A stretch of DNA of 64,000 nucleotides from Candidatus Woesearchaeota archaeon (GTDB lineage: Archaea; Nanobdellota; Nanobdellia; Pacearchaeales; GW2011-AR1), in the NCBI GenBank assembly GCA_964410025.1, contig CAYPFA010000001.1, positions 223,401-287,400 of the forward strand, read 5' to 3'. Positions 4,905 to 61,061 of the stretch are shown here, in pieces. The notes below the pieces were generated by a model. The model made no database searches, was not told the DNA's origin, and saw only the letters and a program-made list of their open reading frames with translations. Within the stretch, counting starts at the first letter, position 1, and the number at the start of each line of letters is the position of its first letter. Both the position numbers and the translations under genes were made by a program.

Positions 4905-4990
4905 AATATTCTATAGAATGGGGATTTATAAATTTAGGGATTTATTTAAAACAATAGATTTTTAATGGTTAAAATTTGTTAATCTTTATT

Positions 4991-5004
4991 GCCCACATCG
5001 CATA
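4991..5004 (+). repeat. 14-nt copy of the 5' end of tRNA-Ser, followed by a small hairpin
   Basis: gcccacatcgcata at 4991-5004 is identical to tRNA positions 5045-5058. It then diverges into gcata-atgtCCGttcgCGG-tatgc. Confidence 0.6.
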
Positions 5005-5044
5005 ATGTCCGTTCGCGGTATGCTCTGTGAGTATAACAACAAAT

Positions 5045-5125
5045 GCCCACATCGCATAGTGGTATTGCACGGGACTGGAAATCCCGGCCCGCAAGGGCTC
5101 GCCGGTCCGATTCCGGCTGTGGGCG
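5045..5125 (+). tRNA. tRNA-Ser (anticodon GGA), class II with long variable arm
   Basis: Hand fold: acceptor GCCCACA/TGTGGGC; 3-bp D stem GCA/TGC; anticodon stem CGGGA/TCCCG with loop CTGGAAA; 14-nt variable arm GCCCgcaaGGGCtc; T stem GCCGG/CCGGC. The T loop TCCGATT is slightly atypical. Confidence 0.75.
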
Positions 5126-7566: not shown

Positions 7567-8175
7567 ATGAGAGGTTTGGTTGGTTCGCGAAATGCATTTG
7601 TTATGCTTAATAATGAATATTTTAAGGCAAAAGCGTTTCGCTCAAAGCGAGCGCAGTTTTTTATTTTAAGTGCAGTAATTATTGCGGCAATTATTGTAAG
7701 CATGGCATCCATAAAAAATTTTGTTATAACCGGCAACGTCCCAAGCAAAATGTACTATTATGGAGACCAACTAGACTCGGAATCTGGAGCAGTAATTGAT
7801 TACAACCTTTACAACTCGGCATCTGGAAATCTAAAAGACTTTCTACAAAAAGCAATAAATTATTCAAAAAACAATTTTCCAGGACTTGATGTCTATTCTT
7901 GTTACTCTTCATCGCCAAACTCAAATACCCTCTCTTGTCAAAACAACGGCTCTCTTACAATTTCCATAAATTCTCCCGCAACTACAATAAATCCACTAAG
8001 CTCTGCGAACATAGATATAACAAATTTAAACTCGCTCACAATGAACGTAAATGGAAATAACTATCAAGTTCCGCTACTAAATTCTTCAATAGTTCGTGAA
8101 CAATTTTATTTTATAATTAGAGTCAATACAAGCTCTGGAGAATTTATTGATGTCTCCAAAGAAATGAAAAATTAA
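7567..8175 (+). CDS. Archaeal type IV pilin-like protein (class III signal peptide); start may be the ATG at 7603
   Basis: FRSKRAQFFILSAVIIAAIIVSMASI has a basic K-R-A followed by a hydrophobic helix. It is the first of five tandem pilin-like genes. Confidence 0.55.
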   Translation: MRGLVGSRNAFVMLNNEYFKAKAFRSKRAQFFILSAVIIAAIIVSMASIKNFVITGNVPSKMYYYGDQLDSESGAVIDYNLYNSASGNLKDFLQKAINYSKNNFPGLDVYSCYSSSPNSNTLSCQNNGSLTISINSPATTINPLSSANIDITNLNSLTMNVNGNNYQVPLLNSSIVREQFYFIIRVNTSSGEFIDVSKEMKN

Positions 8176-14678: not shown

Positions 14679-15989
14679 ATGCCATATGATGTGATAGTCG
14701 GAAGAAATGAGAGTGATAAGAAAGCATTCGGAAAAAAGGGTTTAATTTTTCTTGGAAAGAGTTATGTAACCATGGGTCAATATACTTCACTTTCTAATCC
14801 TGTTTATATGGACGTAGCACGAAGCCACGTCATAATGATTGCCGGAAAAAGAGGCTCTGGTAAATCCTACACTCTTGGCGGAATGGCCGAAGCAATTTCA
14901 GATTTAAATTTTGAAGAAGCGCAAAATGTTTCCTCACTAATTTTTGACACCATGGGAATTTTCTGGACCATGAAATTCAAAAATCACAAAGACAAAGCAT
15001 TACTATTCGAATGGGGCTTAGAAGAAAAAAATATTCCCGTTCGTGTCTATGTTCCCTTTGGTTATTACAATCAATTTAGAGATAAGGGAATACCCATTGA
15101 TGGAGAATTCGCAATAAAACTTTCCGACCTAGAAGCCGACGACTGGATTTCTCTATTTGGACTAAAATTTACACAACCCGAAGGAGTTCTAATTGAAACA
15201 ATCGTATCCAGATTAAAAGAAAAAGGAAATTTTAGTTTTGAGGACATTAGGAATCTTGCAAGACAATCCGAAGAAGTTTCTCAAGATATTAAAAATGCTG
15301 TCATCTCACTTTTCAACGCTGCCGAAACATGGAAATTATTTGACGAAAAAATAGGAACACCTATAAAAGAACTTATTGTTGGCGGGAAAACCACAGTTAT
15401 AGATCTTTCAATGTACGCATCATCTGGAAGTTTCAATGTTAGAGGATTGGTAATTGGTTTGGTGTGTAAAAAATTATTTAATGAAAGAATGTCTGAAAGA
15501 AGAAATGAAGAAATTCAAGCCGTTCAAAGAGGCTACGATATGCAAAGTTTTTCAGTAAAAAGAGAAATGCCACTAGTTTGGATTTTCATTGATGAAGCCC
15601 ATGAATTTCTACCAAGAACCGAAGATGGGAAAACCCCGGCAACCGACGCGCTAATACAACTACTAAGAGAAGGTAGACAGCCAGGAATTTCTTTAGTTTT
15701 AGCAACCCAACAGCCTGGAAAAATTCATACTGATGCCATGACTCAATCCGATATTGTTTTATCTCACAGAGTTACGGCTGAACAAGATGTTAATGCCTTA
15801 AACTCTATCATGCAAACATATCTATACGAAGGCATCAAGGAAAAAATGAATAATCTGCCACACCTAAAAGGTTCCGCAATCTTACTTGACGACAATTCTG
15901 AAAGAATTTATCCAATAAGAGTTAGACCTAGATTTACATGGCACGGAGGCGATGCGCCTAGTGCTGTAAGAGAAGAAAAAATAGAATAA
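14679..15989 (+). CDS. HerA/FtsK-like (DUF87-type) P-loop ATPase
   Basis: Walker A AGKRGSGKSY, Walker B WIFIDEAHEFLP, then LATQQPGKI and SHRV. No NurA partner seen nearby. Confidence 0.7.
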   Translation: MPYDVIVGRNESDKKAFGKKGLIFLGKSYVTMGQYTSLSNPVYMDVARSHVIMIAGKRGSGKSYTLGGMAEAISDLNFEEAQNVSSLIFDTMGIFWTMKFKNHKDKALLFEWGLEEKNIPVRVYVPFGYYNQFRDKGIPIDGEFAIKLSDLEADDWISLFGLKFTQPEGVLIETIVSRLKEKGNFSFEDIRNLARQSEEVSQDIKNAVISLFNAAETWKLFDEKIGTPIKELIVGGKTTVIDLSMYASSGSFNVRGLVIGLVCKKLFNERMSERRNEEIQAVQRGYDMQSFSVKREMPLVWIFIDEAHEFLPRTEDGKTPATDALIQLLREGRQPGISLVLATQQPGKIHTDAMTQSDIVLSHRVTAEQDVNALNSIMQTYLYEGIKEKMNNLPHLKGSAILLDDNSERIYPIRVRPRFTWHGGDAPSAVREEKIE

Positions 15990-16124
15990 AATATCGCCGG
16001 AGTGCCTGGCACGGTGAGCAATTCGCTTTTGCCTTGAAAATTTTAAAATTCAAAACCGCAAATGCAAATTGCGAATAAGAGATGCGCCTAGTGCTGTAAG
16101 AGAAGAAAAAATAGAATAAAATAT
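15951..16124. repeat. Perfect 44-bp direct repeat (15951-15994 and 16081-16124) flanking an 86-bp insert
   Basis: gatgcgcctagtgctgtaagagaagaaaaaatagaataaaatat occurs twice. The first copy is the last 13 codons, the stop and 5 nt after it of the HerA-like gene. Confidence 0.9.
16015..16077. mobile_element. Small hairpin-forming insert, copy 1 of a two-copy family (MITE-like; mobility not proven)
   Basis: Left end tgagcaattcgcttttgc and right end cgcaaatgcaaattgcgaata are identical to 24959-24976 and 25009-25029. The ends are imperfect inverted repeats (ATTCGCtTTTGC / rc ATTCGCaaTTTGC). Confidence 0.5.
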
Positions 16125-16664: not shown

Positions 16665-16747
16665 ATATAAATCCGTATAAAAAAGTAATTACAAACTTTT
16701 TTAAATGAATACAATTTGAGTAAATCATAATCTAACCGATTAATCGT

Positions 16748-16822
16748 GGCCTCGTAGCTCAGCCTGGTTAGAGTACCAGACTCTTAATCTGGGTGTCAGG
16801 GGTTCAAATCCCCTCGAGGTCA
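16748..16822 (+). tRNA. tRNA-Lys (anticodon CUU)
   Basis: Acceptor GGCCTCG/CGAGGTC plus discriminator A; D arm GCTCagcctggttaGAGT; anticodon stem CCAGA/TCTGG with loop CTCTTAA; T arm AGGGGttcaaatCCCCT. Confidence 0.9.
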
Positions 16823-16891
16823 TTTAGCTCTAATTGGGCAACAGCGAAATTAGATTTAATGGTTTCTAGTGATTTAAAGTCTATACGAAAA

Positions 16892-16986
16892 TCAGGGGTT
16901 AAAATTTTTGCTTTTTATAACAACTTGCGAAGCAACTAAAACAAAAATCCGAAAAGTGAAAATTTTACAAAATCCCCTCGAGGTCA
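16892..16986 (+). pseudogene. Second, interrupted copy of the tRNA-Lys(CUU) 3' portion
   Basis: tcaggggtt (16892-16900) and aaatcccctcgaggtca (16970-16986) match tRNA positions 16796-16804 and 16806-16822. They are separated by a 69-nt AT-rich insert containing the hairpin TTGCgaaGCAA. Confidence 0.7.
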
Positions 16987-17092
16987 TAAATTTATTGAAT
17001 GAAGTGAAATAAATATCGTTACTTCTAGTAATTTAAAGTCTATATAAAAATTAAAAATAAGACCAACAAATATTATAAAAACAGCTATCTAA

Positions 17093-24800: not shown

Positions 24801-24873
24801 AGCCCTTTAGTCTAGTGGTCAAGGATACTGGCCTCTGAAGCCGGTGACCCAGGTTCGAATCCTGGAGGGGCTA
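24801..24873 (+). tRNA. tRNA-Gln (anticodon CUG)
   Basis: Acceptor AGCCCTT/AGGGGCT, with the A1-U72 pair typical of archaeal tRNA-Gln. Anticodon stem CTGGC/GCCGG with loop CTCTGAA. T arm CCAGGttcgaatCCTGG. Confidence 0.85.
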
Positions 24874-24950
24874 TTTTTTGCAGATTGAATAAAATGAAAT
24901 CTGCAATTAAGATTTCTCTACTGTATACTTGTTAAAATATCAATTTTCAT

Positions 24951-25042
24951 TTCGAATCTGAGCAATTCGCTTTTGCATAAAAATTGCATCAGCACAAAAA
25001 TAAAAAATCGCAAATGCAAATTGCGAATATGGAGGGGCTATT
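24951..25042 (+). pseudogene. Second, interrupted copy of the tRNA-Gln 3' portion
   Basis: ttcgaatc (24951-24958) and tggaggggctatt (25030-25042) match tRNA positions 24854-24861 and 24863-24875. They are separated by the 71-nt insert. Confidence 0.7.
24959..25029. mobile_element. Small hairpin-forming insert, copy 2 of the family seen at 16015-16077
   Basis: Same 18-nt left end and 21-nt right end as copy 1, with a different AT-rich centre. Confidence 0.5.
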
Positions 25043-34788: not shown

Positions 34789-35241
34789 ATGCAATGCCCA
34801 TACTGTCAAAACGAAGAAACAAAAGTTACAGATAAAAGAGACGCAGAAGGCATGACAAAAAGAAGAAGGGAATGTTTGAAGTGTGAAAAAAGATTCACAA
34901 CATACGAACATGTTGAAATGAATTTAAACGTTATAAAAAAAGATGGCAAAAGAGAAAAATTCGACAGAGAAAAACTCAAAAGAGGAATATTTAGGTCCTT
35001 TGAAAAACGTTCACTAAAAACGGAAGAGATTGATGATGTGATAAGTGAAATAGAAGCAAAAATTTACAGAAATTCAAAAGATGAGGAAATTTCAACTTCA
35101 AAAATTGGCGAAATCGTCATGGACAAATTAAAAAAAGTCGACAAGGTTGCATACATTCGATTTGCCTCGGTATATAGAGAATTTGCAGATATTGAAGACT
35201 TTAAACAAGAACTAAAAGATTTAACAACAAATGGTAAATAA
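34789..35241 (+). CDS. nrdR: Transcriptional repressor NrdR (Zn ribbon + ATP-cone)
   Basis: MQCPYCQNEETKVTDKR...CLKCEKRFTTYE, followed by an ATP-cone. Confidence 0.9.
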   Translation: MQCPYCQNEETKVTDKRDAEGMTKRRRECLKCEKRFTTYEHVEMNLNVIKKDGKREKFDREKLKRGIFRSFEKRSLKTEEIDDVISEIEAKIYRNSKDEEISTSKIGEIVMDKLKKVDKVAYIRFASVYREFADIEDFKQELKDLTTNGK

Positions 35242-37267
35242 AGTAAGAAAAAGAGATGGAACGGTGGTTTTATTTGATAAAGAAAAAATTACTGATGCAA
35301 TTTGGAAAGCAGCGAAGGCAGTCGGTGGTCACGACAGAGAAAGAGCAGCAAGAGCAACAGAAATTGTTTGTCAAAAACTAAAAGATAAATATGGAGAAAA
35401 CGGCATACCAGAAGTTGAAGAAGTTCAAAACCTAGTAGAATCTGTTTTAATAAAAGAAGGACACGATCAAACTGCAAAAGCTTATATCTTATACCGAAAA
35501 TCCCACGAAGAACTAAGAAATGTAAAAGGACTTTTTGATACAATTGAAGCAGTTGAAGATTATATTGGCCTGAACGATTGGATGGTTAAAGAAAATTCTA
35601 ACATGGGTTTCTCACTACAAGGATTAAATAATTATATTGCAACAAAAATTATTACAAACTATTGGATGAGAAGAGTTTATCCAGAGTCAATGAGAAACGC
35701 ACATGAGAATGGCGAAATTCATATCCATGACCTGGGAACCCTTGGGGCCTATTGCGTCGGATGGGACCTTAAAGATATACTTACCGTTGGATTTACTGGA
35801 GTAAAGGGAAAAGTTCAATCCAAACCAGCAAAACATTTGAGAACCGCATTGGGACAAATGGTAAATTTCTTCTATACTCTTCAAGGAGAGACGGCAGGCG
35901 CCCAGGCTTTTTCTAACTTTGACACACTACTTGCTCCTTTTGTAAAATATGATAATCTGGACTATAACAGTGTAAAACAGGCTATGCAGGAATTCGTTTT
36001 TAATTTAGCAGTTCCAACTAGGGTAGGTTTCCAAACACCATTTACAAATATTACATTAGATTTGAAAGTTCCAAGCTATATGGCAAACGAACCAGTAATT
36101 ATTGGCGGCTTGCCTCAAAAAGAAACCTACAAAGAATTCCAAACCGAAATGGATATGATAAACAAAGCATTCGCAGAAGTAATGGTTGAAGGCGACGCAT
36201 CTGGAAGAGTTTTTACATTCCCAATTCCAACCTACAACATCACAAAAGATTTTGATTGGAGCAACCCAAACTACGACGCTATTTGGGAAATGACTGCAAA
36301 ATACGGAATACCTTATTTTTCTAATTTTATAAATTCAGATATGAAACCAGAAGATGCAAGAAGTATGTGTTGCCGTCTAAGACTTGATCAAACCGAATTA
36401 AGAAAAAGAGGCGGCGGATTATTCGGGGCAAATCCTCAAACAGGCTCAATCGGCGTAGTAACATTAAATATGCCAAGAATAGGTTTCACGGCACAATCGA
36501 AAGAAGACTATTTTAAAAAAGTTGGTGAACTAATGGAACTATCCAAAGAAAGTTTGGAAATCAAAAGAAGAACAATTGAAAGATTTACCGAAGTTGGCTT
36601 ATATCCCTATTCAAAATTTTATCTAAGACAAGTAAAACAAAGATATGGCCAATATTGGAAAAACCATTTTGCAACAATCGGACTTTTGGGAATGAATGAA
36701 AGCATAATGAATTTTATGCCAGGAGAAAACATAGCAACGGAAAAAGGCAAAGCATTCGCTATTGAGGTTTTAGATTTCATGAGAAAAAAACTTGAAGAAT
36801 ATCAAGCGGAAACAGGTAATATCTATAATCTTGAAGCAACTCCAGGAGAAGGAACAACCTACAGATTTGCGAGAATGGACAAAAAAAGATTTGGAAGAAT
36901 CCTTGTGGCTAATGATGAAGCGGTAAAAAAAGGAGCAAACCCTTATTACACAAACTCAACTCAACTTCCAGTAAACCATACGGATGATTTATTTTTAGCA
37001 ATGGAACTGCAAGATGAACTACAAACAAAATACACAGGAGGAACTGTTTTCCACGCATTCATCGGAGAAAGACTTCAAAAAGAAGGAGTAAAAAAACTTA
37101 TAAAATCCATGGCAGAAAATTTCAAAATGCCCTATTTTACATTAACTCCAACATTTTCCATCTGTCCAGTCCACGGATATATACAAGGGGAGCATGAGTT
37201 TTGTCCTAAATGCGATGATGAATCCAGCTACCAAGAAGGAGAAGAATTCAATCTCAGAACAGTCTAA
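35231..37267 (+). CDS. nrdD: Anaerobic (class III) ribonucleoside-triphosphate reductase, large part lacking the glycyl-radical C-terminus
   Basis: N-terminal ATP-cone (VRKRDGTVVLFDKEKI), central NrdD barrel with catalytic-loop MCCRLRLD. It ends CPKCDDESSYQEGEEFNLRTV without the RxxGY motif. Confidence 0.9.
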   Translation: MVNKVRKRDGTVVLFDKEKITDAIWKAAKAVGGHDRERAARATEIVCQKLKDKYGENGIPEVEEVQNLVESVLIKEGHDQTAKAYILYRKSHEELRNVKGLFDTIEAVEDYIGLNDWMVKENSNMGFSLQGLNNYIATKIITNYWMRRVYPESMRNAHENGEIHIHDLGTLGAYCVGWDLKDILTVGFTGVKGKVQSKPAKHLRTALGQMVNFFYTLQGETAGAQAFSNFDTLLAPFVKYDNLDYNSVKQAMQEFVFNLAVPTRVGFQTPFTNITLDLKVPSYMANEPVIIGGLPQKETYKEFQTEMDMINKAFAEVMVEGDASGRVFTFPIPTYNITKDFDWSNPNYDAIWEMTAKYGIPYFSNFINSDMKPEDARSMCCRLRLDQTELRKRGGGLFGANPQTGSIGVVTLNMPRIGFTAQSKEDYFKKVGELMELSKESLEIKRRTIERFTEVGLYPYSKFYLRQVKQRYGQYWKNHFATIGLLGMNESIMNFMPGENIATEKGKAFAIEVLDFMRKKLEEYQAETGNIYNLEATPGEGTTYRFARMDKKRFGRILVANDEAVKKGANPYYTNSTQLPVNHTDDLFLAMELQDELQTKYTGGTVFHAFIGERLQKEGVKKLIKSMAENFKMPYFTLTPTFSICPVHGYIQGEHEFCPKCDDESSYQEGEEFNLRTV

Positions 37268-37287
37268 AGAGGTAAAAAGGAGGTCCA

Positions 37288-37410
37288 ATGAAACAAAGAA
37301 CTAAATGCGAAGTATACAGTAGAATTTGCGGCTACATTCGTCCAGTAGAGCAATGGAATGAAGGCAAGCGTGCAGAATTTACTGATAGATCAAAATTCAG
37401 AGTTGAATGA
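37288..37410 (+). CDS. Stand-alone 40-aa NrdD glycyl-radical domain
   Basis: Not in ORF track because it is too short. MKQRTKCEVYSRICGYIRPVEQWNEGKRAEFTDRSKFRVE carries the NrdD C-terminal SRIxGY...RPV..WN.GK..EF..R signature. It has its own SD aaaggaggt 6 nt upstream, is in a different frame from nrdD, and its stop overlaps the nrdG ATG. Confidence 0.75.
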   Translation: MKQRTKCEVYSRICGYIRPVEQWNEGKRAEFTDRSKFRVE

Positions 37411-40087: not shown

Positions 40088-40155
40088 AATATACGAATGA
40101 CCTCGAGGAAAAAATTTCGCTTTCGATAACATTTTTACGAAGCAACAAACCCCTC
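40088..40155 (-). pseudogene. Second, interrupted copy of the tRNA-Lys(UUU) 3' portion
   Basis: On the minus strand, gaggggtt (40155-40148) and cctcgaggtcattcgtatatt (40108-40088) match the tRNA T arm, acceptor end and trailer. They are separated by a 39-nt insert with the hairpin GCTTCG...CGAAAGC. Confidence 0.65.
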
Positions 40156-40253
40156 GTTCTTCACGAATACAAAATTTTTTGTGGACTTGACGCCTCAACA
40201 GAGGTGATCCCTTTGGGAAACCCCTTGGGGTGAAAATCCAAAAATATACGAAA

Positions 40254-40328
40254 TGACCTCGAGGGGATTTGAACCCCCGGCACCCGGATTAAAAGTCCGG
40301 TACTCTAACCAGGCTGAGCTACGAGGCC
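40254..40328 (-). tRNA. tRNA-Lys (anticodon UUU)
   Basis: The reverse complement folds as GGCCTCG/CGAGGTC acceptor, anticodon stem CCGGA/TCCGG with loop CTTTTAA, and T arm GGGGGttcaaatCCCCT. The first 30 and last 24 nt are identical to tRNA-Lys(CUU). Confidence 0.9.
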
Positions 40329-40486
40329 ATCGTTTTTGATCTCTACTCGCATTAACAAGTAGAATCAGAGCCTTAACATTAAGACCCCAATCCTGGTGAT
40401 TATCTAGAGAAAAATGCCTTTAAAAAATTAACTTATTTATAAAATAACATCATAAACTATATAACCGAAAATATTCAAAGAACTTT

Positions 40487-59756: not shown

Positions 59757-61061
59757 TTACTTTTTAGCTTTCTTAATAGGCTTAGAACTTCTTCTTTTCA
59801 TTACAGTTACAATAATCCATAATAATGCAAGAGCTACAATAAATATAACTAAAACAATACTTCCAGTTGTACCCAAAGCACCAATAACCGCACCAGTGAA
59901 TGCAGAGAAGAATGTTTTATCTTGAGTATTATCGCCTATTGTGATTCCCTCGTCAGGTGTTGATTCCACTGAAGTGCTACAACTCTTTATCTCTTCTGGT
60001 CTAGCTGATGCCTTACAACTTGAAACTGGTAAAGAACATTCTCTTGTTTGAAGTCCATTAGATGAACATTCAGACCATTGTGTACATGTCCAATCAACAT
60101 AACAAGTGCCGGAACCACTGCCAGAAACAGTAGCTTCATTTCCAAACATTCCCCAAGATGAGAAGTGATTTGTTTTAGCCCATACATAATTTTCAGCAGT
60201 ATTTACTCCAGAAGATAATGGTAAAACCCAAGTGCTTCCGTTCCAATAATATAATTTCAAAGTGTTTTCATTTATTCCAGCAGCTTCAACTTCTGCATCA
60301 CTATAATAGAATCTAAGTTCTGTATCGTTGGATAATGTTCCACTACCGCTAAAATCAATTACAAAGAATTTATCCAAACCAGGTAATGAGAATGAGCCAA
60401 CATCAGCTGGAGCTTCAGAATATTCTTCAATAACTATTGTACCGCTTCCGCCATCTTCAAATACTAAACTAATTGTAGCATTAAATTCGTCGCTTGTAAT
60501 ATTAGTATCACCTTCAAAGTCAATTTCATAAACAGCGTCTGCTTCACCCTGAGAGCTAATAACTAGTGTTTGATTAGCAGAAGATGCAACAATTTTATCA
60601 GTTGTAACAATCATTTGAACAACATAACTTCCTAAGTCAAAATCTGTAGTGTCGAATGTAATATTATAAGATAATTTTGAAGAAGCTCCATCGTAGCCAT
60701 AACCATATCCATATCCGTAGCCATAACCATATCCAGCAGTTGAAGAAGACAACTTATCAATTGAAATTCCTTCACAAGCAGTTAGCTTGTTTCCAGCAGC
60801 ATCAAAGTCGCACGTATCAACACCATTTAATAAGATTGAAATTGAAGAAATATCCGCTCTTTCATTTGAACTCATATCTACATCAAAAACTGTACTAACT
60901 GAACTTCCTTGTTTTGGAGAATCATTAGAGAAATTTCCAAGTGAAACCACAAACGCGTTTGCAGGTCCAGCCCAGATTAAAAGTGTTAAAACAGCGATGG
61001 TGATAAAACTAGCAAAAACTTTTGTTGAATGTTTGCCGTATTTGTCGTTTAGTGATATCAT
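59757..61061 (-). CDS. Cell-surface protein with signal peptide, (GY)7 repeat, Cys-rich stalk and C-terminal TM anchor
   Basis: N-terminal FASFITIAVLTLLIWAGPANA. GYGYGYGYGYGYGY is encoded at 60693-60734. C-terminal TM helix followed by a KRRSSKPIKKAKK tail. Confidence 0.6.
   Translation of the reverse strand: MISLNDKYGKHSTKVFASFITIAVLTLLIWAGPANAFVVSLGNFSNDSPKQGSSVSTVFDVDMSSNERADISSISILLNGVDTCDFDAAGNKLTACEGISIDKLSSSTAGYGYGYGYGYGYGYDGASSKLSYNITFDTTDFDLGSYVVQMIVTTDKIVASSANQTLVISSQGEADAVYEIDFEGDTNITSDEFNATISLVFEDGGSGTIVIEEYSEAPADVGSFSLPGLDKFFVIDFSGSGTLSNDTELRFYYSDAEVEAAGINENTLKLYYWNGSTWVLPLSSGVNTAENYVWAKTNHFSSWGMFGNEATVSGSGSGTCYVDWTCTQWSECSSNGLQTRECSLPVSSCKASARPEEIKSCSTSVESTPDEGITIGDNTQDKTFFSAFTGAVIGALGTTGSIVLVIFIVALALLWIIVTVMKRRSSKPIKKAKK

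Follow-up and report, generated by a model that had tools for sequence, protein, structure and literature searches.

A duplicated gene end in a DPANN archaeon and its probable origin by insertion of a small hairpin element

The window considered here, a 64-kb stretch of DNA from a Candidatus Woesearchaeota archaeon (contig CAYPFA010000001.1, positions 223,401 to 287,400), contains an intact gene for a HerA-like ATPase whose 3′ end is repeated shortly downstream, behind a small hairpin element that we call E. All coordinates are in window numbering unless a locus label (L001 and so on) is given, and those of the main features are collected in the table. The gene product, named HerA-like by some sources, keeps its native C terminus, ...WHGGDAPSAVREEKIE, in agreement with the orthologue at L018. 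The repeated segment, GATGCGCCTAGTGCTGTAAGAGAAGAAAAAATAGAATAAAATAT, is present in two fully identical copies (44/44) at a spacing of 130 nt, and is by far the longest local repeat of the window. Its first copy takes in the 12 final sense codons and ends 5 nt beyond the TAA stop (15987-15989). The original prediction, made from the sequence alone, had likewise reported a perfect 44-bp duplication, but its count of 13 codons holds only if the stop is included.

The 86 nt between the two copies (15995-16080) contain no open reading frame (ORF). They consist of a short filler, a second copy of an 8-nt gene sequence (A, TGGCACGG), E itself and the trinucleotide AGA (16078-16080), which separates E from the downstream repeat copy. 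Within the gene, A lies 4 nt upstream of the first repeat copy, and these 4 nt (AGGC, 15947-15950; denoted x) are replaced in the second copy. The filler CGCCGGAGTGCC reads CGCC-GGA-GTGCC and repeats the target GGCAC-GGA-GGCG in inverted form; 3 of its 12 positions mismatch, all of them exactly at the insertion point, and together with A it makes the palindrome GTGCC-T-GGCAC. The reuse of gene sequence in the insert and a 63-nt element with inverted ends had both been predicted, and a covariance model of related copies matched precisely these 63 nt. The accompanying interpretation also stood: the locus is an insertion footprint in which the upstream copy leaves the ORF complete and the downstream one, a further gene end (TGGCACGG...GATGCGCC), is interrupted by the small element.

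Table. Features of the window that bear on the duplicated gene end and on related units (A, 8-nt target sequence; E, hairpin element; X1 and X2, copies of the flanking repeat)
Feature	Position	Strand	Basis
Target gene, HerA-like ATPase with DUF87 (PF01935) domain, 436 aa, intact	14679..15989	+	ORF and domain matches
A inside the intact gene, TGGCACGG, 8 nt directly 5′ of the insertion point	15939..15946	+	Sequence reading, junction curation
Target DNA hairpin in the gene end, GCAC GG AGGCG-ATG-CGCCT A GTGC	15941..15964	+	Folding, sequence reading
X1, first 44-nt repeat copy, the regenerated gene end	15951..15994	+	Sequence reading, repeat finder
Filler CGCCGGAGTGCC, inverted copy of target GGCAC-GGA-GGCG	15995..16006	+	Sequence reading, junction curation
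Second copy of A (TGGCACGG), directly 5′ of E	16007..16014	+	Sequence reading
Hairpin element E, 63 nt, TGAGCAATTCGC...GCAAATTGCGAATA	16015..16077	+	End searches, folding, covariance model 67.6 bits
X2, second 44-nt repeat copy, running on into the original downstream flank	16081..16124	+	Sequence reading, repeat finder
Older unit at tRNA-Lys(CTT), tRNA 16747-16823	16747..16987	+	Repeat finder, tRNA scan, folding, covariance model 32 bits
Sister unit at tRNA-Gln(CTG), tRNA 24801-24873	24801..25042	+	End searches, tRNA scan, covariance model
Unit at tRNA-Lys(TTT), tRNA 40253-40329, with another insert of ~105 nt	40089..40329	-	tRNA scan, repeats
Orphan E variant, closing helix covaried to GCGAAA/TTTCGC	7582..7644	-	End search, covariance model 36.9 bits

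E at this locus folds as a long imperfect hairpin, and the gene end that received it is itself capable of forming a hairpin, with a folding energy of -8.5 kcal/mol (z = -2.9) that was equalled in 3 of 200 shuffles. E entered on the 5′ side of this target hairpin, between 15946 and 15951; the inner part of the hairpin, AGGCG-ATG-CGCCT, codes for GGDAP. Relatives of the HerA-like protein at 92% and 82% identity have genes that end normally, with neither E nor the repeat after the stop. The empty site suggested for comparison thus exists in two relatives, and it supports, along with the absence of mismatches in 44 nt, the earlier view that the event was recent; the unit is the youngest in the window. 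In the 92%-identical relative (L018, 3857-4288), an ORF with an HNH_3 (PF13392) domain, resembling a homing endonuclease, starts 46 nt past the HerA-like gene. The end of this gene draws selfish elements in more than one lineage.

E belongs to a family with a well-defined anatomy. Its members are 51-75 nt in size, occur in several copies per genome and align to the consensus T-GAGCAATTCGCTT-(variable hairpin)-AAATGCAAATTGCGAAT-A. Covariation affects the closing helix GCAAUU/AAUUGC, whose variants are AAGAUU/AAUCUU, GCGAAA/UUUCGC and AAAAUUUU, and, freely, the apical stem, while conservation is highest in an irregular core made up of a C-A mismatch, two G-C pairs and a U-U mismatch. Across 45 copies, 95% of the cells pair and 10 of 12 pairs show changes on both sides, a level of pairing that was reached by none of 500 shuffles and that compares with 20-49% in slid controls. 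E is therefore a real hairpin kept by compensatory changes, and its fold could form in RNA or in single-stranded DNA alike. Inspection of the consensus disposed of several known motifs: the core reads CUUYGAG and not the CUGANGA of a hammerhead, a K-turn would need the opposite polarity of the bulge, and C/D boxes are absent, as is the pseudouridylation pocket of an H/ACA RNA.

The distribution of E was determined with an E pattern run against one genome per species and with a second pattern scan of metagenome contigs. The first scan yielded 16 loci, up to 4 per genome, all in assemblies of DPANN archaea labelled Pace-, Woese- or Nanoarchaeota; these hosts are uncultured, and most of their assemblies are labelled metagenome-assembled genomes. 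The second yielded 25 true loci, and 5 further matches were chance hits in a GC-rich bacterial ORF. As far as sampled, E is thus a widespread multi-copy family confined to DPANN archaea. About 70% of the loci lie within roughly 110 nt of a tRNA gene, although the loci were gathered by E sequence and such frequencies are biased accordingly. E prefers GC-rich stem-loops a few tens of nt from the 3′ end of a gene, usually the T-arm of a tRNA, and the target hairpin in the HerA-like gene is the analogue of such an arm. No match to E was found in IMG/VR viral contigs or in plasmid and phage collections. In Rfam, only tRNAs reached the gathering threshold and the surroundings of E gave just weak, chance-level matches at E-values up to 10. 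No description of E was found in the literature on tRNA introns, MITEs (miniature transposable elements with inverted repeats) and DPANN archaea or under the raw motif, and the family is apparently undescribed.

E is mobile, because copies that differ at two positions sit at different tRNA genes of one assembly and because E is missing from the relatives of the HerA locus. The copies in question (L007 and L008) lie at tRNA-Arg and tRNA-Thr in opposite orientations; one of the two differences is internal and the other is at the last base. Successive units with differing E variants also stand behind a single tRNA at L012, L022 and L045. In one further genome, E is embedded in a composite repeat of ~110 nt (L005, L006, L013). 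A 59-nt unit occurs there in 4 tandem copies (L005 7300-7540, L013 1770-1812) and shares 43 nt with the flank of E on another contig of the same genome.

Most of the loci share an arrangement around E, to which the HerA locus conforms. Read in the sense of the target gene, most loci present the intact gene ending in A-x-X, then an inverted copy of A together with the next 3-10 nt of target, then A, E, X and the old flank. A is 8 nt long in 9 of 10 curated loci, and x, the sequence lost at the site, amounts to 0-5 nt. At these 10 loci the inverted copy adjoins A with a gap of 0-1 nt, extends 3-10 nt past the insertion point and has its mismatches mostly within 5 nt on the 5′ side of that point; the resulting junction palindromes include CTGGGAC-T-GTCCCAG and GTGAC/GTCAC. 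X measures 11-89 nt, and its right edge lies 1-60 nt, most often 1-6 nt, beyond the gene end. The 8 nt that precede E do not recur behind it, and the direct repeat on its flanks lies asymmetrically: the left edge of the duplication is fixed 8 nt from E and the right edge is variable. Reversal of E leaves the layout unchanged (L004, L007, L042), and the flanking repeats are unrelated from one locus to the next (HerA, tRNA-Gln, -Lys, -Thr, -Trp, -Ile, -Ser, -Pro and others). Recurrence of the whole 130-bp block without a link to target duplication, named beforehand as an outcome that would speak against the insertion, was not what the searches gave; the recurring part is the ~63-nt core only, accompanied by its own local target duplication.

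The units measure 117-170 nt and have no ORFs. They may follow one another as independent successive hits (L012, L022) or as tandem arrays, such as three identical units within one contig at L026 and four units with chimeric E variants at L045. Other hairpin families leave the same scar, as seen at tRNA-Gly (L012) and tRNA-Leu (L042). The 3′ ends of these two genes, which were not selected for E, are repeated 90-145 nt downstream behind hairpin inserts (L012 5850-5950 and L042 1650-1800, both on the minus strand), one insert being a GC-rich hairpin and the other an E variant. The errors in the filler come from the insertion process and not from later decay, because at the HerA locus X is identical at 44 of 44 positions and yet the much shorter filler has its three mismatches. 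The downstream, E-split copy of the target is a dead remnant.

The 130-bp block is the product of a recent insertion of a non-autonomous hairpin element of ~65 nt that lands in stem-loops near gene ends. We consider it probable (roughly 0.6) that this account holds together with its mechanistic part, which is inferred and has the insertion resolved by host displacement synthesis with a short copy-back. No integrase, recombinase, transposase, reverse transcriptase or Cas1 appears among the precomputed Pfam hits of the called genes in a segment covering most of the 64 kb, and E is therefore taken to be non-autonomous. Nor was a partner transposase or a full-length insertion sequence (IS) with E ends found in 49 collected loci, in IMG/VR or among the Pfam hits of the window. 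Lone E ends, which would be a sign of an autonomous partner, were absent from these 49 loci, to which the search was confined. As there is no element-encoded enzyme, E would have moved in trans or by means of host enzymes.

In the sequence of steps that we propose, E would enter one DNA strand at a stem-loop, and this strand would be opened 8 nt 5′ of E, giving a 5′ end. Host displacement synthesis on the unmodified complementary strand, over a variable and usually short distance, would then produce A-X without E. The displaced flap may escape trimming because of the hairpin it carries; in the literature on rad27/FEN1 and on repeat expansion, hairpin-bearing 5′ flaps resist FEN1 and give duplications. 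Finally, a short and error-prone copy-back, passing over the hairpin, would precede the rejoining of the flap and would give rise to the inverted filler and to the palindrome on the left side of A. Selection would retain only those events in which X reaches beyond the gene end. Selection for an intact gene would also account for three features of the layout: X invariably extends just beyond the gene end, only stem-loops close to 3′ ends are occupied, and polarity follows the gene and not E. Standard transposition with an 8-bp duplication, flank hairpins of the hAT type, HUH self-priming and target-primed reverse transcription were each considered, and each needs additional assumptions before it yields inverted copy, A, E and X in this order. 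More tentatively, and with the odds somewhat against it, the signature might represent an undescribed form of DNA mobility, in which an enzyme-less, structure-targeting hairpin element enters stem-loops such as tRNA T-arms and is resolved through an intermediate, either hairpin-capped or a flap, whose offset is constant at 8 nt, so that the essential target is regenerated every time.

Several observations weigh against insertion coupled to duplication in this manner, besides the sampling bias mentioned above. A few copies of E show no recognisable duplication, namely the orphan at 7582-7644, L002, L015 and the copies in the ~110-nt composite repeat, and these must be set against the local duplications that otherwise accompany the core. 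At L014, E lies in the first of two full tRNA-Trp copies, in the mirror image of the layout; at L025 it lies in the D-loop of a second tRNA-Leu; and at L036 (199-256) a tRNA gene that otherwise looks normal has, within its canonical 37/38 intron, an E-like hairpin and, behind it, part of a second. Because E is found in these full-length second copies and in an intron, insertion without coupled duplication also happens or is tolerated. The filler is short, and pieces of it can be read as direct copies (CGGAG and CGCC in the HerA unit). The number of units differs between assemblies, with one in the window and at least two in L001 before the contig ends. The proposed mechanism would also need an enzyme that opens the strand 8 nt from E. 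Palindrome centres of 0-1 nt are hard to obtain by simple fold-back priming, and an enzymatic, hairpin-capped intermediate may be involved instead.

Among the alternatives, RNA-mediated retroposition fares best, although we judge it improbable. Here E would be a small structured RNA copied by target-primed reverse transcription at a nicked stem-loop, X would be a target-site duplication of variable length, and the filler would resemble the product of twin priming. The varying lengths of the duplications, the 1-4 A-rich nucleotides between E and X2 (A, AAA, AAAA, AAGA), the irregular 5′ junctions with their inversions and the ability of E to fold as a stand-alone hairpin all agree with such an origin, and reverse transcriptases of diversity-generating retroelements are frequent in DPANN genomes. 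However, where E is reversed (L004, L007, L042), the irregular junction and A still face the gene, whereas an RNA of fixed polarity should flip them, and A is local target sequence 5′ of E that would not be expected on an E transcript. In addition, no reverse transcriptase is on record among the Pfam hits of the window, and the covariation is silent as to whether RNA or a DNA strand is folded.

It is quite unlikely that E is instead an immobile host element, that is, a terminator, processing signal, intron or other cis-element or non-coding RNA placed after tRNA genes, with the duplications being incidental. The strong association with tRNA genes, the conserved irregular core helix, the AT-rich, TATA-like boxes that precede several units by ~25 nt and the E-like hairpin in the canonical intron of L036 are what such a role would predict. 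They are outweighed by the occurrence of E in both orientations and at the end of a protein gene, by the copies that differ at two positions at different genes of one assembly and by the absence of E from close relatives at the HerA locus. Inspection and folding revealed no bulge-helix-bulge (BHB) at the borders of E, no Rfam family matches it, and an intact tRNA copy always adjoins the split one.

Tandem arrays raise the further idea that X, filler, A and E form a small circular or rolling-circle unit of 117-170 nt, which integrates and amplifies by homologous recombination in X. Identical tandem units are indeed present, three of 117 nt within a 19-kb contig at L026 and at least two at both L001 and L004, but unequal crossing-over between copies of X explains arrays equally well. 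A mini-circle also leaves the first origin of the unit from local target sequence at each new gene unexplained, and the units behind one tRNA often have different E variants (L012, L022, L045), so that we give this idea very little weight.

An att duplication of the integrase type, in which a recombinase integrated an element bearing a copy of the gene 3′ end and left attL and attR as the repeats and the 86 nt as remains, is harder still to credit. It would account for perfect direct repeats over a gene 3′ end and for a regenerated target, and the 3′ ends of tRNA genes are classic archaeal att sites. The original prediction had invoked att sites in describing an event that regenerates its target; the target was indeed rebuilt, but the analogy to an att site and its integrase fails in view of the missing integrase domain and of flanking repeats that vary in sequence and length. 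An insert of 86 nt with no integrase among the Pfam hits of the called genes, and a single E accompanied at dozens of loci by unrelated repeats of 11-89 nt, are not what the single att core of an integrase would leave. Conservative recombination makes neither the extra 8-nt A nor an inverted, error-bearing filler, and many independent precise deletions of the element body would be required.

Least credible of all is an assembly artefact caused by a de Bruijn graph looping through the 44-bp repeat: L001 does stop inside its second unit, as is typical of a graph loop, and several contigs break at E units, but the 86-nt insert is unique sequence that must derive from reads, both junctions recur in independent assemblies, and dozens of loci from differing genomes, studies and assemblers share the architecture. 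The repeat and its insert are not a private artefact, because L001, an independent JGI assembly, has the same repeat-to-insert and insert-to-repeat junctions and because, in an assembly from sample 3300059473, the distance to the next gene is likewise 505 nt. Metagenome contigs halt in or beside E units at the ends of L001 and L028 and at the starts of L038 and L045; E units appear to fragment short-read assemblies.

Other identities for E or for the units were tried and rejected. For a BHB intron, E and its flanks fold as a continuous helix with the unpaired tails UGA and GAAUA and without a 3-4-3 motif, as judged by inspection and folding and not by a dedicated BHB search; moreover, the intact tRNA or ORF copy next to the split one means that the functional copy is uninterrupted, L036 being the exception. 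Split or permuted tRNA halves do not apply, since the neighbouring tRNA is complete. A diversity-generating retroelement conflicts with the lack of a reverse transcriptase domain on record in the window, with repeats identical at 44 of 44 positions and with the targeting of tRNAs as well. Against a CRISPR-like or guide-RNA arrangement with E as scaffold and X as guide stand the absence of an effector gene, a length of X anywhere between 11 and 89 nt and the sense orientation that such a guide would have.

The window holds two canonical and two diverged copies of E, and no dinucleotide shuffle of it gave a match to either of the E ends. The second canonical unit lies at tRNA-Gln(CTG), where A within the gene is TTCGAATC (24854-24861) and X1 is TGGAGGGGCTATT (24863-24875). 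Downstream, a second A (24951-24958) that equals the 8 nt just 5′ of the insertion point in the tRNA is followed by E (24959-25029), starting 86 nt past the tRNA, and by X2 (25030-25042) directly 3′ of E. No clean empty site was present among relatives of the neighbouring MazE-like gene. This unit is old, because the 88% relative keeps only an orphan X and a decayed E end and has lost the tRNA.

At tRNA-Lys(CTT), the 3′ 18 nt of the gene (16806-16823) are repeated 164 nt downstream (16970-16987) behind a diverged E, which the model places at 16900-16969 and which reads as about 16906-16969 against a partial T-arm copy at 16892-16905. A 29-nt repeat with a TTTAAAG box, 90% identical between its copies (16864-16892 and 17023-17051), brackets this unit and could be a promoter-like element or a piece of an older duplication. 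At tRNA-Lys(TTT), the 3′ end and trailer (~20 nt) occur at 40244-40264 and 40089-40108, ~155 nt apart, and an inverted T-loop copy follows the tRNA, in the same layout with an insert of a different family. No flanking duplication was recognised at the orphan E at 7582-7644, which overlaps the start of a predicted ORF (7567-8175).

Apart from these units, the window is an ordinary DPANN chromosome that encodes PolB, RFC, NrdD, ThyX, thymidylate kinase, CDC48, FEN1, SerRS and glycosyltransferases. Upstream of tRNA-Ser(GGA), at a distance of 54 nt, lies a second copy (17/18) of its first 18 nt (4990-5007 and 5044-5061), a 5′ fragment with no adjoining E. A perfect 20-nt repeat, CGTAGCCATAACCATATCCA, with 24-nt spacing (60692-60735), lies within an ORF on the minus strand (59757-61061). 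The gene for NrdD, the anaerobic ribonucleotide reductase (35231-37410), was called as a 678-aa ORF with, behind it, a separate 40-aa ORF that also matches the NRDD family; its C-terminal piece may have been split off or recoded.

To our knowledge, few mobile elements have been described from DPANN archaea, and we know of no transposase or integrase chemistry that fits the insertion signature of E. Its 8-nt offset, palindromic junction and variable, gene-end-hugging duplication suggest one of two things, a new enzyme or a parasite that turns the replication and repair of its host to its own use. The case illustrates how an element can strike essential genes such as those for tRNAs and survive, and it explains both the many partial tRNA copies after tRNA genes, which confuse annotation, and the contigs that break at units. 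T-arms and D-arms split by E, together with an E-like hairpin in a canonical intron, provide concrete intermediates for the debated origin of disrupted archaeal tRNA genes. If a new mode of mobility is indeed at work, E could supply the split, intron-bearing and fragmentary tRNA genes that are typical of DPANN archaea and Nanoarchaeota.

Comparison with known systems places E near several of them. Like MITEs and repeats of the REP/BIME type (Correia, REP/RAYT and Rickettsia palindromic elements), which are 50-75 nt long, lack ORFs, have many copies and often follow genes, E is a hairpin with conserved ends and a variable middle, the closing helix GCAATT/AATTGC corresponding to terminal inverted repeats. 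Unlike them, it lacks a fixed short target-site duplication, and its duplication of 11-89 nt is joined by an 8-nt copy and by a filler in inverted sense; its targets are the stem-loops of tRNA T-arms, and no partner transposase or IS was found in the searches given above. Integrative elements at tRNA att sites, such as those with archaeal pNOB8/SSV-type integrases, likewise duplicate the gene 3′ end, keep the gene intact and displace a partial copy downstream, but E has neither integrase nor cargo, its "att" sequences are many and of varied length, and the partial copy is split by E. The attC sites of integrons and the attP hairpin of CTX-phi (XerCD) share with E an imperfect hairpin of 50-140 nt with conserved ends, mismatched bases and a variable centre, and in both cases insertion regenerates the target and tandem arrays are possible. 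Integrons occur in archaea, GTDB Nanoarchaeota included (PMC9668308). By inspection for boxes, and not with an attC covariance model, the E ends TGAGCAATTCGC and GCAAATTGCGAATA lack the R″/R′ boxes (RYYYAAC/GTTRRRY) and no gene cassettes are present; the attC and CTX-phi systems, for their part, yield neither target duplication nor inverted filler.

Target-primed retroposition of short and long interspersed nuclear elements (SINEs/LINEs) resembles the present case in that the element is small, structured and non-autonomous, the duplications vary in length, the 3′ tail is short and rich in A, and inversions occur on the 5′ side. It differs in that the junction polarity of E follows the target gene, that local target sequence stands 5′ of E and that no reverse transcriptase was identified. 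FEN1-resistant hairpin flaps and snap-back filler at alternative end joining also produce variable direct duplications beside a hairpin and short, inverted, error-bearing insertions. Those events are sporadic mutations, in contrast to the reproducible signature of a conserved element with a fixed 8-nt offset, and the link to them is one that we infer. E is thus a small non-autonomous repeat of a familiar kind, set apart by an unusual and reproducible insertion signature.

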